Notes under the pieces: model-generated
Seen by the model: only the letters and a program-made list of their open reading frames with translations
The model's database searches: none
What the model was told of the DNA's origin: nothing
Made by a program: the position numbers and the translations under genes
NCBI GenBank assembly: GCA_951406725.2
Contig: OX597833.1
Location: forward strand, 64,852,001 to 64,916,000
Source of the DNA: Octopus vulgaris
Lineage: Eukaryota
Direction: 5' to 3'
DNA length: 64,000 bases
Shown: positions 3,569 through 63,460 of the stretch, piece after piece
How positions within the stretch are numbered: position 1 is the stretch's first letter
Layout: each line of letters opens with the position of its first letter

Positions 3569-3874
3569 ATACGCATATTATGGACTCTCCTGTATTAAAC
3601 GACGTATCTCAGGATTGGCAATTTCTCAACGAACAACCACACAGAAGATTTGCTTAGAGTGATCAAATAGTTGTGATTACATCAGCTGACTCCCTCCATC
3701 AAACCGACACTACTTGAACAAATGCATCATTTGTCACATCCCAGCTGACGAAACGACCGCAGAGCAACGTGAAATGAAGTACCCGCTCTGGAAATCGAAC
3801 ACACGATCAGACAATCGTGAGTGCAAAGCCCTAACAACTACGCCATGAGCCTTTTACGCACACTACACATTCTT

Positions 3875-4020
3875 TATTTTCTCTCCTTGTTTCTTTCTGT
3901 GTTCCCTTCTGTGGAAGAGCATAGGCTCGAAACATTAAAGACATTTTCACTTCCCGAGCGTTAAACTAATACATTTGTTTGTTGTCTACACCACCTGTCT
4001 TCCTTTTTGTGAATCTCCCC

Positions 4021-4021
<1 letters not shown>
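3875..4021 (+). mobile_element. Short HHR-bearing repeat, family H1 (decayed copy)
   Basis: Homologous to 24490-24645, 33615-33800 and 58835-58985; ends at (TA)n. Confidence 0.75.
3905..3940 (+). ncRNA. Minimal type-I hammerhead-like motif (degenerate)
   Basis: CCUU-CUGUGGA-A-GAGC(AUAG)GCUC-GAAAC-AUU-AAAG. Confidence 0.5.
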
Positions 4022-4077
<56 letters not shown>

Positions 4078-8699: not shown

Positions 8700-9975
8700 T
8701 GCGGGGGAATAGGAATGTTGCAATTAGAAATCTCGTATAAAAGGTCAACTATTGGAATGAACAGGCACTCATTTAGTACAGAAGACTGGTTTCTCCAAAT
8801 TATGTAAGAATCTGAATGCAGCAAGAAGTCGCGAAGTATTTTCAAGGAAGCTTGTAAAATCGTAAGACGGTTTGACGTTAGATTTGGCGGCGATTAAGAA
8901 CCTGCAACTACTGCTACCAACCAAGCAAAGCAAAGCAAATCAGACTGCTAATGAGAACGAGCAGAAAGAAATGAAGAGCGGTGAAACCAGGAGTTCAAGC
9001 ATGCGCAATATATTCTGCAGATGTTGACCATGAAACACTACATTAGTGTCTTTGGAGGAGCAATGGCCCAGTGGTTAGGGCAGCGGACTCGCGGTCGTAG
9101 GATCGCGGTTTCGATTCCCAGACCGGGCGTTGTGAGTGTTTATTGAGCGAAAACGCCTAAAGCTCCACGAGGCTCCGGCAGGGGATGGTGGTGATCCCTC
9201 CTGTACTCTTTCACCACAACTTTCTCTCACTCTTACTTCCTGTTTCTGTTGTACCTGTATTTCAAAGGGCCGGCCTTGTCACTCTCTGTGTCACGCTGAA
9301 TATCCCCGAGAACTGCGTTAAGGGTACACGTGTCTGTGGAGTGCTCAGCCACTTACACGTTAAATTCACGAGCAGGCTGTTCCGTTGATCGGATCAACCG
9401 GAACCCTCGTCGTCGTAACTGACGGAGTGCTTCTACGTTAGTGTCTAAAGAGTTCAGGAGTGAAAGCAGAGACTGATGGCTTCATACAGGCGCCACAAGA
9501 CCACAATTTCTTTTTTACCAGAATTTTACCAAGTTAATGTTTATAAAAACGGTGCTGATCCAAAATACAGATTCTGTAACACATAGGATGAAACAACCGA
9601 TCATTTTCTTCTAGCTGTTTTTTGCTAACATCAGAGGAATATAAAAATCCCCACGGTAGGTTAAGGCAGAAATTACATTGGAAAATATGTAAGCACTACA
9701 CAATTGGCAGCACTCCTGCCCACTGCTACGAACACCATCCTGAGCCAGTGGTTGAAGGTAAAAATGCCACCATCCCCTGGGATTTTCCGGTAGTCAGTGA
9801 TAGCCTAATCGACTAGCCATAATTATAAAAGACAATCAGGAAAAACAGTTGGAGACAAAGGACTTTTACAGATAGAAATATATCTGAGATTCCAGGTGCT
9901 CTTGGTATGATAAAACAAAGGAAGTCAGGAACACTAAGATAACATCCCAGGAGAACCATATCTCAAAGATGCTGA
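8700..9975 (+). pseudogene. Decayed non-LTR retrotransposon C-terminus (R4/Dong-like RLE clade), interrupted by a SINE
   Basis: GVKAETDGFI..KYRFCNT*DETTDH..LTSEEYKNPH..LHWKICKHY..YEHHPEPVVE..WDF..GALG (CCHC knuckle plus RLE region). Confidence 0.75.
9052..9432 (+). mobile_element. Full-length tRNA-derived SINE family A
   Basis: Head tggcccagtggttagggc..ggtttcgattccc (A/B boxes). 14-bp TSD ctac(a/g)ttagtgtct at 9038-9051 and 9433-9446. Confidence 0.92.
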
Positions 9976-21932: not shown

Positions 21933-22502
21933 ATGTGTGTATGTATGTATGTATGTATGTATATGCGAAACGTGCTTATGCACGCTGTAAACACTACTAA
22001 TTATTCGTTATGTATTACGATGCGTTCATGCCTACTCAGTGTTTTTTTTTGTAACAATTTTTGCGTAGCATAAATCAAGATATCGATCTATCAACATATA
22101 TCATTTAAATAGTTGTGAGAAACTTTTAGACATATATCGTTGCTGTCTGTGTTTTTCATGTGACATTTTAAACGATTTTCTCCTGGTTAATTATTATAAT
22201 TATAATTATAAATATCCATTTTTGTTTTTCGGCGAAGTGATATCGGGGTGCAAATATACGAAGCTCAATATACCCACCATGACTGATAAGGGTGCGCCAG
22301 GCGCATTGCATTAAAAACCATATGTGCCCGACATGGAGATCTCGTATTAAGACAAACATCTTGCAGTTGAGACCTAGTTAGAATTTTCTTCTGGTCGAGC
22401 AGCTCATCCCGATCGAAAGGCCCTTGAATAAGTATTGTTTAAGGATGATGAACGAAACAACCATGTTTCCAGATGTGAATTACTTAATCCCCAAATAATC
22501 TC

Positions 22503-22533
<31 letters not shown>

Positions 22534-23137
22534 ATATGCGAAACGTTCTTCTGCACGTTGTATAGACTACCAATTATGACGGTGGTAGTGGTGGTGGTGG
22601 TGGTGGATTTTCTCAATTCACTGGAGCCTCCTGGACTACCTCCACATATATTAGCACTTAAAGTTGGAACTCCTGTAATGCTACTCCGCAATTTGGAACC
22701 ACCAAGACTTTGCAATGGAACACGACTGGGGATAAAGAAAATGATGTCGCACGTTACCGAGGCGATCATTCTTTCTGGATGTGGAAAAGCTGATGACGTC
22801 ATTATTCCAAGAATTCCTCTTACTCCATCAGGAGTAGAAATTCCATTTACATTCAGAAGACTGCAATTCCCCCTTCGTGTCAGCTTTGCCATGTCCATTA
22901 AGAAATCCCAGGGTCAAACCCTCTCTGTAGCTGGTCTTCTCTTGGAAGAGCCCTGCTTCTCGCATGGGCAACTGTATGTTGGCTGCTCAAGGGTAGGAAC
23001 CAAAAGAAACCTTTTTGTATATGCTCCACAAGGAAAAACAAGGAACATTGTTTACATCGCGGTGTTATAACCTCAACATATATATACATGATCCTCTTTT
23101 TTTAACAAACTTCATGTACTTTCACGTATTCATATTA

Positions 23138-24459: not shown

Positions 24460-24489
24460 TATAGATAATAGATAGATAGATAGATATCT

Positions 24490-24645
24490 TTTTTTTCTCT
24501 CCTTGTTTTTTCTATGTCACTTTCTGTAGAAGAGCGCAGGCTCGAAACGTAAAAGACTTTTTTCAATTTCCTGAGCGTTATACTAATACAACTGTTTGTT
24601 TTATATACCACCTCTCCGTCTTTTTTTTTTTTGTGAACTCTCCTT
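24490..24645 (+). mobile_element. Short HHR-bearing repeat, family H1
   Basis: Embedded in (GATA)n; four homologous copies in the window. Confidence 0.8.
24520..24555 (+). ncRNA. Minimal type-I hammerhead motif with non-canonical core
   Basis: CUUU-CUGUAGA-A-GAGC(GCAG)GCUC-GAAAC-GUA|AAAG. Confidence 0.65.
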
Positions 24646-26985: not shown

Positions 26986-27265
26986 CTGAACTGAACATGC
27001 CGAGTGTTCTTCTGCTCGCTGACCACTCAGCAGAAAGAATATTGCATCGAAGTCTGTCAAAATCAGCGTCAGCGTGCTGCTGATCATCCATCTTTTACGT
27101 CGAGGAACATCACTGGTGTCGAGAGTTGGGTGTACGGGTCTGACACTGAGACAAAGCATGAGTCTCCACAATCAAAGAGGTCTTCATCTTCACCACCGGA
27201 AAAAAAGGCACGACTGAGCCGCAGCTCACTCAAATGCATGCTCCTCGTTTTTCTCGACGTCTGCG

Positions 27266-27668
27266 GAGCTGGCAGAAACGTTAGCACGCCGGGCGAAATT
27301 GGTAGCCCTATTTCGTCTGCCGTTAACGTTGTGAGTTCAAATTCCGCCGAGGTCGACTTTGCCTTTCATAATTTGGGGGTCGATAAATTAAGTACCAGTT
27401 ACGCACTGGGGTCGATGTAATCAACTTAATACCTATGTCTGTCCTTGTTTGTTCCCTCTGTGTTTAGACCCTTGTGGGTAATAAAGAAATAGGTATTTCG
27501 TCTGCCGTTAACGTTGTGAGTTCAAATTCCGCCGAGGTCGACTTTGCCTTTCATAATTTGGGGGTCGATAAATTAAGTACCAGTTACGCACTGGGGTCGA
27601 TGTAATCGACTTAATACCTATGTCTGTCCTTGTTTGTCCCCTCTGTGGGTAGTAAAGAAATAGGTATT
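27266..27668 (+). mobile_element. SINE family C tandem dimer
   Basis: Head plus two body-tail units of about 185 bp, joined by aaagaaataggtatttcgtc. Confidence 0.9.
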
Positions 27669-33614: not shown

Positions 33615-33800
33615 AGGGAGAGTTTACGAAAAAAAAAACAAAAGACGAAGACAGGTGATGTACAAAACAAACAGATGTATTATTATAACGCTCAGGAATA
33701 GAAAAAATATTTTACGTTTCGAGCCTACGCTCTTCTACGGAAAGGGACTCAGAAAAAAAACAAGGAGAGAAACAAGGAGAAAAAAAAGGAGAGAAAAAAA
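33615..33800 (-). mobile_element. Short HHR-bearing repeat, family H1
   Basis: Homology to the other H1 copies; motif at 33709-33744 reads CUUU-CCGUAGA-A-GAGC(GUAG)GCUC-GAAAC-GUA-AAAU. Confidence 0.78.
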
Positions 33801-34486: not shown

Positions 34487-34690
34487 AACAAGAAAACACA
34501 AAAAAACACAACAACGCGAGGACGTGGAACAAATATAGTATTATTGGACGCTCAGGAAAGAAGGGAAGAAGGAGGGTTTAACGTTTCGAGCGGAGCTCTT
34601 CGTCAGAAACATAGGAAAAGAAAAGATGCAGAGAAGGGAAGACGGAGGAAAAAAAATCGCCAACGGTACACATGAGGTCACATTTTGAAA
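34487..34690 (-). mobile_element. Short HHR-bearing repeat, family H2
   Basis: About 200 bp, highly similar to 46562-46768 and 49842-50050; flanked by TA-rich microsatellite. Confidence 0.85.
34576..34610 (-). ncRNA. Minimal type-I hammerhead ribozyme motif
   Basis: GUUU-CUGACGA-A-GAGC(UCC)GCUC-GAAAC-GUU|AAAC. Confidence 0.75.
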
Positions 34691-46561: not shown

Positions 46562-46763
46562 TTCAAAATGTTACCACGTGTGTACCGTTGGCGATTTTTT
46601 TCCTCCGTCTTCCTTTCTTTGGATCTTTCCTTTTCATATGGTTCTGACGAAGAGTTCCGCTCGAAACGTTAAATCCTCCTTCTTTCCTGAGCGTTCAATA
46701 ATACTATTCTTGTTCCACGTCCTCGCGTTGTTGTGTTTTCCCTCTGTGTTTTCAGGTTTGGAT

Positions 46764-49844: not shown

Positions 49845-50050
49845 TAATCCAAACAAGAAAGCACAAAAAAAACCCACAACAACGCGAGGACGTGGAACTG
49901 ATATAGTATTATTGGACGCTCAGGAAAGAAGGAAAGAAGGAAGGTTTAACGTTTCGAGCGGAGCTCTTCGTCGGAAACATAGGAGAAGGAAAGATCCAGA
50001 GAAGGGAAGACAGAGGAAAAAAATCGCCAACGGTACACACGCGGTCACAT
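49842..50050 (-). mobile_element. Short HHR-bearing repeat, family H2
   Basis: Motif at 49944-49978: GUUU-CCGACGA-A-GAGC(UCC)GCUC-GAAAC-GUU-AAAC (U4C). Confidence 0.83.
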
Positions 50051-58834: not shown

Positions 58835-58984
58835 ATGGATGTATTAGTATAACGCTCAAGAATAGAAAAAGTCTTTTACGTTTCGAGCCTACGCTCTTCT
58901 ACAGAAAGGGACACAGAAAAAACAAGGGGAGAAACAAGGAAAGAAAGAATGTGTGTAGTGGCTAACGATCTATCATGATAACTC

Positions 58985-61463: not shown

Positions 61464-61881
61464 TATTTCTTTACTACCCACAAGGGGCTAAACATAGAGG
61501 GGACAAACAATGACAAACAAAGGGATCAAGTCGATTACGTCGACCCCAGTGCGAAACTGGTACTTTATTTATCGACCTCGAAATGATGAAAGGCAAAGTC
61601 GACCTCGGCGGAATTTGAACTCAGAACGTAACGACAGACGAAATACCTATTTCTTTACTACCTACTAGGGTCTAAACACAGAGGAGACAAACAAAGACAG
61701 ACACACGGATTAAGTCGATTACATCGATCCCAATGCGTAACTGGTACTTAATTTATCGACCCATAAACGATGTAAGGCAAAGTCGACCTCGGCGGAATTT
61801 GAACTCAGAAACGTAACGGCAGACGAAATACGGCTACGCATTTCGCCCGGCGTGCTAACGTTTCTGCCAGCTCTCCGCCTT
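61464..61881 (-). mobile_element. SINE family C tandem dimer
   Basis: Two body-tail units with the same junction as 27483-27503. Confidence 0.9.
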
Positions 61882-63049: not shown

Positions 63050-63460
63050 TTGCTCTGAAGTATAAATTTTTACGATTCAAGCATAAAGACTTGATTTATG
63101 CTTCCGAAAGTGCTTCAGCGTCCTTTTCCAACTAGAATGTTATTGCTTCTATTCCGTAGTCATGTGGGATGTTTGTGTAAAGATTAATAATATCGAAGGA
63201 AACCAATAAGGTCGCTTCATTAGTTGTTTTTCTTAGGTCCTCTACCATGTCCAGGTCGTCTCTAATAAACGTTTTGATGTATTTCAGCAAGGGTTTCTGT
63301 AGGATGTTTAGGAAATGGCTTAGGCGTTGGGTTTTACAGGTTGGGCCAGCTATTATGGGTCTTAATTTTTAGCCTTCTGGTGCTTGGATATTTATGTATT
63401 TGCCTGGTGATTGTTTGCAGGTTCCATTAAGTATCTTGCTCTAGTGTATTTTATGTAGAC
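63050..63460 (-). pseudogene. Penelope-like element reverse transcriptase fragment
   Basis: KIH*SK..KLRPIIAGPTCKTQRLSHFLNILQKPLLKYIKTFIRDDLD..LLVSFDIINLYTNIPHDYGIEAI. Confidence 0.85.

Follow-up and report, generated by a model that had tools for sequence, protein, structure and literature searches.

We analysed a 64,000-nucleotide (nt) stretch of the Octopus vulgaris genome (GenBank assembly GCA_951406725.2, contig OX597833.1, positions 64,852,001 to 64,916,000 of the forward strand; hereafter the window), in which a first-pass annotation had described a family of hammerhead-like motifs, H1, with U instead of A at position 6 of the core (U6). By their sequence, the four H1 copies of the window are short 3′ ends of an autonomous Neptune-type retrotransposon, a Penelope-like element (PLE), a link that the first-pass annotation did not recognise. 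U6 is a property of the whole family, and the rest of the motif was kept almost unchanged while its flanks diverged. The A6U change removes a contact of the U-turn. U6 is fixed in every H1 subfamily, and the reading that we favour, to which we give even chances, is that the motif acts as a slowed hammerhead ribozyme, probably assisted by protein and mostly switched off. The copies in the window are listed below, where pLTR stands for pseudo-long terminal repeat.

24489–24645, plus strand: H1 solo pLTR, a 5′-truncated 3′ end of the subfamily with A at position 7, flanked by GATA microsatellites
24520–24555, plus strand: minimal type I hammerhead-like motif, from sequence, alignment and pair counts; stem I 24520–24523/24552–24555, core C3 to A9 24524–24530 (CTGTAGA), its U6 being 24527, extra A 24531, stem II 24532–24535/24540–24543, G12-A13-A14 24544–24546, palindrome ACGT 24547–24550, predicted cut after 24551
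58838–58977, minus strand: H1 solo pLTR; core 58904–58898 (CTGTAGA), U6 at 58901; 3′ part interrupted by a TATC microsatellite
33617–33775, minus strand: H1 solo pLTR; core 33740–33734 (CCGTAGA) with U6 and a private C at position 4; stem I imperfect
3861–4022, plus strand: H1 solo pLTR of the G7/U17 subfamily; core 3909–3915 (CTGTGGA), U6 at 3912; palindrome decayed at its CpG; the copy ends at a (TA)n run

The motif at 24520–24555 consists of stem I, the U6 core, one additional A that separates A9 from G10.1, stem II (4 bp, its loop 4 nt long), GAAA, an ACGU palindrome, H17 and the second strand of stem I. Apart from U6, it is the consensus of PLE minimal hammerheads, in which an extra nucleotide after A9 is normal (PMC4209133). 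A search of the window with the H1 pattern gave 4 matches against 0.00 expected from 100 shuffles, all of them 5′-truncated 3′ ends (pLTRs) from older subfamilies. Rfam at gathering thresholds gave no match in the window and misses all seven motifs, the four of H1 and three of a sister family, H2. What the first-pass annotation had said of the individual copies was largely reproduced: U at position 6, stem II (GAGC/GCTC) and GAAAC are found in all four, ACGT and GTA are intact in three, and stem I (CTTT/AAAG) is perfect in two. Its positions were right, and the copy at 33734–33740, for which it gave no strand, lies on the minus strand. Of the fixed core CUGUAGA that it proposed, U6 stands but the base after it does not; the family core is CUGUNGA, with A, G, C or U at position 7 according to the subfamily.

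We counted exact matches to one 25-base pattern, varying only at position 6, across the 2.8 Gb genome. U was found in 19,819 of 20,690 matches (95.8%), C or G in 601 and A in 270, so the canonical core CUGANGA with A6 does not describe H1. In the oldest subfamily, the matches listed (100 of 461, counted by eye) comprise 85 with U, 10 with C and 5 with A. An A6 lineage within H1, at first taken as older, was rejected, since the oldest subfamily is mostly U6 and copies labelled A do not group together on a tree built from 57 copies with the motif excluded (500 of 500 shuffles were as low). Judged by this distribution, the A6 copies of H1 are scattered post-insertion decay. There was no exact match to the motif in IMG/VR.

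A PLE open reading frame (ORF) lies upstream of longer H1 copies. Among 30 endonuclease-bearing loci, 19 have H1 328–1014 nt downstream, and 18 of these have U6; the lone exception is the query itself, which was chosen for A6. A protein search found at least 150 places, many with identical scores and with open frames of up to 1,214 amino acids, from which we drew 60 young loci with long ORFs (L181–L240), favouring long frames. Three young loci that were checked have a single ORF of 1,078–1,162 amino acids from an ATG. It carries a reverse transcriptase (RT) domain (Pfam E 1.7e-7), a linker of CX4CX2C form that lies between RT and endonuclease, and, at its C terminus, a GIY-YIG endonuclease, for which the Pfam match is weak (E 0.007, below cut-off) and the YIGQ and C/H motifs are visible in the translation. 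A CX2-5CxxC linker and microsatellite targeting mark Neptune-type PLEs, the linker being shared with the Nematis clade (PMC8557442). In the H1 element, both partial tandems forming pLTRs and insertion at microsatellites are seen, and relatives with related RTs carry the published Neptune hammerhead. We therefore assign the element to the Neptune type from its linker, its microsatellite targeting and the hammerhead of its relatives.

The unit of the element is 4,482 nt. The motif is present in both pLTRs, so that 15 of 20 loci show two motifs 4.45–4.57 kb apart, and 39 of the 60 young loci are tandem. All 102 motifs at these 60 loci have U6 (99 share the same core), and therefore the variant is carried along by intact elements. 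Exact copies of the youngest 35-mer number 3,152, and an element of about 20,000 copies, some of them intact, is likely still active; contigs of four runs guessed to be RNA covered 29–30 of 30 bins of part of the young element, but reveal neither RNA ends nor cleavage and were not used as evidence. Taken together, the genome-wide consensus of U, the oldest subfamily and the young loci bear out the claim of the first-pass annotation that U6 is family-level and not decay, a claim that a consensus of A6 would have overturned. A word containing CTAATAC recurs many times in the 3′ untranslated region of one young locus (L183), upstream of the motif; it is also kept about 30 nt downstream of the motif in H1 (window 24582–24590), with a near form in H2 and its older form H3, and is a possible protein-binding site.

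The rest of the motif was compared between subfamilies, to seven of which 140 of 175 copies were assigned by flank motifs. All seven have majority U6. Within the 36-nt motif, changes between subfamilies are found only at N7 (at least 3) and at H17 (2, A to U and never G), the two sites that a hammerhead leaves free. The other 34 sites show 0 changes, compared to 37 changes in 73 gap-free downstream flank columns. Clustering on the flanks only (159 copies, K=13) counted 50 changes over 105 flank columns and 0 over 33 motif sites, and the change at position 6 in this clustering stemmed from loci chosen for A6. The first-pass annotation had named stems no more conserved than their flanks as an outcome that would count against its view, and this was not seen. 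C3, U4, G5, G8, A9, G12, A13, A14, A15.1, U16.1 and H17 are the majority state in all seven subfamilies; stems I and II, G10.1–C11.1 and the one extra nucleotide after A9 are likewise present. In an alignment of 10 sequences from H1, H2 and the outgroups, 93.8% of the cells are paired and stem I shows covariation between these groups.

The insertions themselves carry information on the RNA template. In 27 of 30 young copies (L381–L410) the 3′ end lies 112–115 nt past the predicted cut site, and in the other 3 it lies at +100; therefore, the RNA that was copied had either not been cut at that site or been joined again. Across 34 tandem insertions, 17 private substitutions occur in both halves and 45 in one only. 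For shared variants the two halves match 149 times and mismatch 17 times, with such variants lying on either side of the cut site. Lineage variants between −87 and +82 likewise match, and the internal junction is identical in 37 of 41 cases; a private variant at +97 that had seemed present in both halves failed pairwise alignment. The halves are thus homogenised, which indicates a single template copy for both, as expected of a circle or of a seamless re-copy; gene conversion may be an alternative source of matching halves. A circular RNA fits such one-template tandems, and a hammerhead-made circle was earlier proposed for PLEs (PMC4209133).

Three further observations concern where the copies begin or end. 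The 40 long insertions that reach the upstream repeat (among L181–L240) leave the stretch from −378 to +13 of the cut site free of ends (largest-gap P 0.0004). By contrast, among 30 unselected young copies, 17 have their end within −43 to −291. Among the young copies L381–L410, 6 of 30 start at −107/−108 and 3 more at −102 to −114, which may reflect a transcription start or a joining hot spot yielding 220-nt copies resembling short interspersed elements (SINE-like).

From these results we infer a mechanism in which H1 RNA on its own would form a rod through pairing between its core and the ACGU palindrome. Two motif copies 4.5 kb apart could then pair via the palindrome, probably aided by the protein of the element, and cut rarely. 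Most RNA would remain uncut, which would keep the RT start about 113 nt downstream, and paired cutting and joining would occasionally yield a 4,482-nt circle that the RT could copy for more than one round. In the predicted monomer fold, a rod, U4-G5-U6 pair with the palindrome; for the youngest subfamily this rod is 3.4 kcal/mol more stable than the open form. The palindrome ACGU/AACGUU that replaces helix III can dimerise (predicted duplex −3.7/−5.5 kcal/mol). The canonical outgroup motif with A6 folds into an equally stable rod in another register, which suggests that a rod ground state is general to the lineage and not special to U6; the idea that U6 created a unique off-fold is weakened, because the canonical relatives form rods too. 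A further weakening by the GUU triplet was considered and dropped, since GUU is common among published minimal hammerheads.

Several points weigh against cutting, and most of them are what would be expected if the motif no longer cuts and is kept as a structure or sequence bound by the protein of the element, whether as the rod or as an inactive hammerhead-shaped fold, with tandems arising from template jumping or from multimeric uncut RNA. We consider this quite possible, though not probable. Hammerheads mutated in this turn cut poorly: the natural A6C hammerhead cuts at less than 0.1 per min (PMC3088659; PMC7151607), and in a saturation scan all single CUGA-turn mutants were low in activity (PMC9901934). 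PLE minimal hammerheads are already weak with A6 (PMC4209133), and because of both facts the activity of H1 may be nil. In the predicted rod, U6 pairs with A15.1 (probability 0.43–0.98), and N7 and H17 are mostly unpaired there as well, which means that freedom at these two sites is no mark of the catalytic fold in particular; the sites that tell the hammerhead from the rod are only C3, A14, U16.1 and the extra A, and the three core sites are weak evidence for the catalytic fold. No compensatory change is found inside the H1 stems across the seven subfamilies, and the loop GUAG is also invariant, which indicates a constraint on the sequence itself, by protein. Low-complexity columns inflate the flank rate, which is an upper estimate, although the contrast with the motif is still large.

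The insertions also count on this side. Copying crosses the cut site in 39 of the 60 long copies, which run 378 to more than 1,467 nt beyond the upstream cut site (two of these are probably one duplicated insertion). A pile-up of 5′ ends at the cut site, sought as an in vivo sign of cleavage, was not seen: only 2 of 60 long copies end within 35 nt of it, and at about 18 distinct loci the 5′ ends spread from −35 to +24 around it. Both the circle and its closure at the hammerhead are hypothetical. In the anole lizard, a PLE hammerhead cleaves solely with its protein, uncut RNA is the main insertion substrate and catalytic mutants still insert in vitro from uncut RNA (PMC11167929), so that cleavage is dispensable there in vitro; Naiad PLEs spread without canonical hammerheads (PMC8557442).

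A motif that has ceased to cut is harder to reconcile with three observations. The rod is shared with the canonical A6 relative and hence is no peculiarity of U6. Four sites unpaired in the rod (C3, A14, U16.1 and the extra A) never changed, and H17 is only A or U. In addition, halves homogenised across the site and an invariant junction need a seamless re-copy, and cut-and-join is the simplest known route to one. The literature also offers precedents for a slowed ribozyme: the natural A6C hammerhead, though slow, is active and is rescued by Mn2+ (PMC3088659; PMC7151607), and the anole hammerhead needs its protein to cut while insertion mainly uses uncut RNA (PMC11167929). The first-pass annotation had left the choice between a functional core variant and a dead fold; the evidence, which comes from sequence comparison and prediction, leans to the slowed ribozyme. 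Because A6 is absent and cleavage is only predicted, we file H1 as a hammerhead-derived variant in a Neptune-type PLE rather than as a proven ribozyme.

The opposite alternative, that in its natural setting the U6 hammerhead has full competence, the place of A6 being taken by the protein, Mn2+ or an unseen tertiary contact, appears improbable. Its attraction is that Mn2+ rescues A6C ribozymes to almost normal cutting (PMC7151607), that about 20,000 exact U6 copies compare with 801 for the canonical-core H3 pattern, and that the rest of the core is strongly constrained. It is at odds with the lack of any compensating change in the motif relative to its A6 relatives, with the rescue of CUGA-turn double mutants only by a C3/G8 swap (PMC9901934), and with the abundant short copies that span an uncut or rejoined site. 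A dead relic passively carried at the 3′ end of a successful element is very improbable and largely refuted: a harmful change may by chance become fixed in one master lineage and position 6 alone staying unchanged is expected at the flank rate, but the 34 motif sites without a change in seven subfamilies stand against about 0.5 changes per adjacent flank column.

H1 is also to be seen beside its relatives, of which H2 has three motifs in the window.

46644–46670, plus strand: H2 motif with A6 and U4; homologous downstream flank
49948–49974, minus strand: H2 motif with A6 and C4, the H2 majority form
34580–34606, minus strand: H2 motif with A6 and U4

Exact matches number 6,284 for H2 and 801 for H3. 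A6 is found in 100 of 100 H2 and in 100 of 100 H3 motifs among the matches listed; C4 (U4C) is found in 84 of 100 for H2 (100 of 6,284 listed) and in 11 of 100 for H3, which is mostly canonical. By these counts, U4C in H2 is a second change in the same CUGA turn and the majority form in a younger family. U4C is known from a viroid, where activity is low in vitro and sufficient in vivo (PMC3088659). A scan of 80 metagenome loci with related RTs, with position 6 left free, found 13 motifs, all with A6; 5 of the 13, beside related Neptune-type RTs in other hosts (L263, L286, L244, L317), have C4. Since the outgroups, H2 and H3 all keep A6, U6 is derived in H1. No coding partner of H2 or H3 was found within 1.5 kb at 55 loci by tblastn with the H1 protein; the one match was an H1-like fragment. 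A broader proposal is that the U6 core is active but purposely weakened: two sister Penelope lineages of one genome would have independently tuned down the same CUGA turn (A6U in H1, U4C in H2) and then out-amplified their canonical relatives, with rare protein-assisted cut-and-join at the two pLTR hammerheads making a 4.5-kb circle for longer insertions; this is tentative and, taken as a whole, less likely than not.

The closest known relatives of H1 are the minimal type I hammerheads of metazoan PLEs (Cervera & De la Peña 2014, PMC4209133), especially the Neptune motif of Acropora digitifera. They share with H1 a U-rich lead-in, a short stem I, the extra nucleotide after A9, G10.1–C11.1, the ACGU palindrome replacing helix III, an NUH site and a place in both pLTRs. 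The motif of one metagenome locus (L290) is letter-identical to the published Acropora hammerhead, and loci with that motif encode RTs 55–65% like that of H1. In contrast to H1, all 56 representatives in Fig. S3 of PMC4209133 have A6, which the descriptor used there required, and the sole core variant reported there is a U3-A8 swap. The A6C hammerhead of phage Bcep176 (PMC3088659; PMC7151607) resembles H1 in having a pyrimidine at position 6 of an otherwise canonical core; it is one measured phage sequence with C, whereas H1 has U in about 20,000 retrotransposon copies and is known from sequence. In the Anolis Poseidon element (PAc; PMC11167929), as in H1, reverse transcription starts at two nearby positions past the cut site (about 90–110 nt there, +100 and +112–115 in H1) and the targets are AT-rich. 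That element belongs to the Poseidon clade and has a canonical core in a hammerhead overlapping the ORF start, whereas the H1 element has a Neptune-type linker and a long 5′ leader. Non-LTR (long terminal repeat) retrozymes (PMC7229834; bioRxiv 10.64898/2026.07.22.740005) share a type I hammerhead, a proposed circular RNA and a PLE origin; they are short non-coding tandem repeats, each with a hammerhead, while the short H1 copies, dispersed in the genome, are truncated ends of a 4.5-kb element that has a coding region, and are not retrozymes in that sense. A literature search found no natural A6U hammerhead family, though the PLE-linked hammerhead variants reported by Lünse et al. 2017, about 150,000 in number, or the classic studies of core mutations might include A6U.

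Other features were noted in the window. At 63141–63362 (minus strand), a weak tblastn match to the H1 protein just before the RT core (30% over 77 amino acids, E 1.7e-6) suggests a remnant of another PLE or RT element. A stop-free frame of 212 amino acids at 22432–23070 (plus strand) presumably resembles the PIF1-type helicase of Helitrons. At 26995–27510 and 61629–61873 lie two 245-nt copies in opposite orientation that are 90% alike, and the frame that they overlap is one that we take to resemble a mariner transposase remnant. Positions 1–210 and 9159–9368 form a 210-nt inverted repeat pair, 96% complementary and 8.9 kb apart.

In PLEs the hammerhead is nearly universal, weak in vitro and dispensable for insertion in the one reconstituted system. 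In H1, an intact and very young family spreads with a change at a position treated as invariant, beside a U4C sister and canonical relatives, and the sequences of its copies are evidence for two rounds of copying from one template in PLE partial tandems. If U6 cuts, the natural hammerhead consensus would widen, and descriptor searches requiring CUGANGA would miss whole abundant families. If U6 does not cut, PLE hammerheads would have a selected non-catalytic role.
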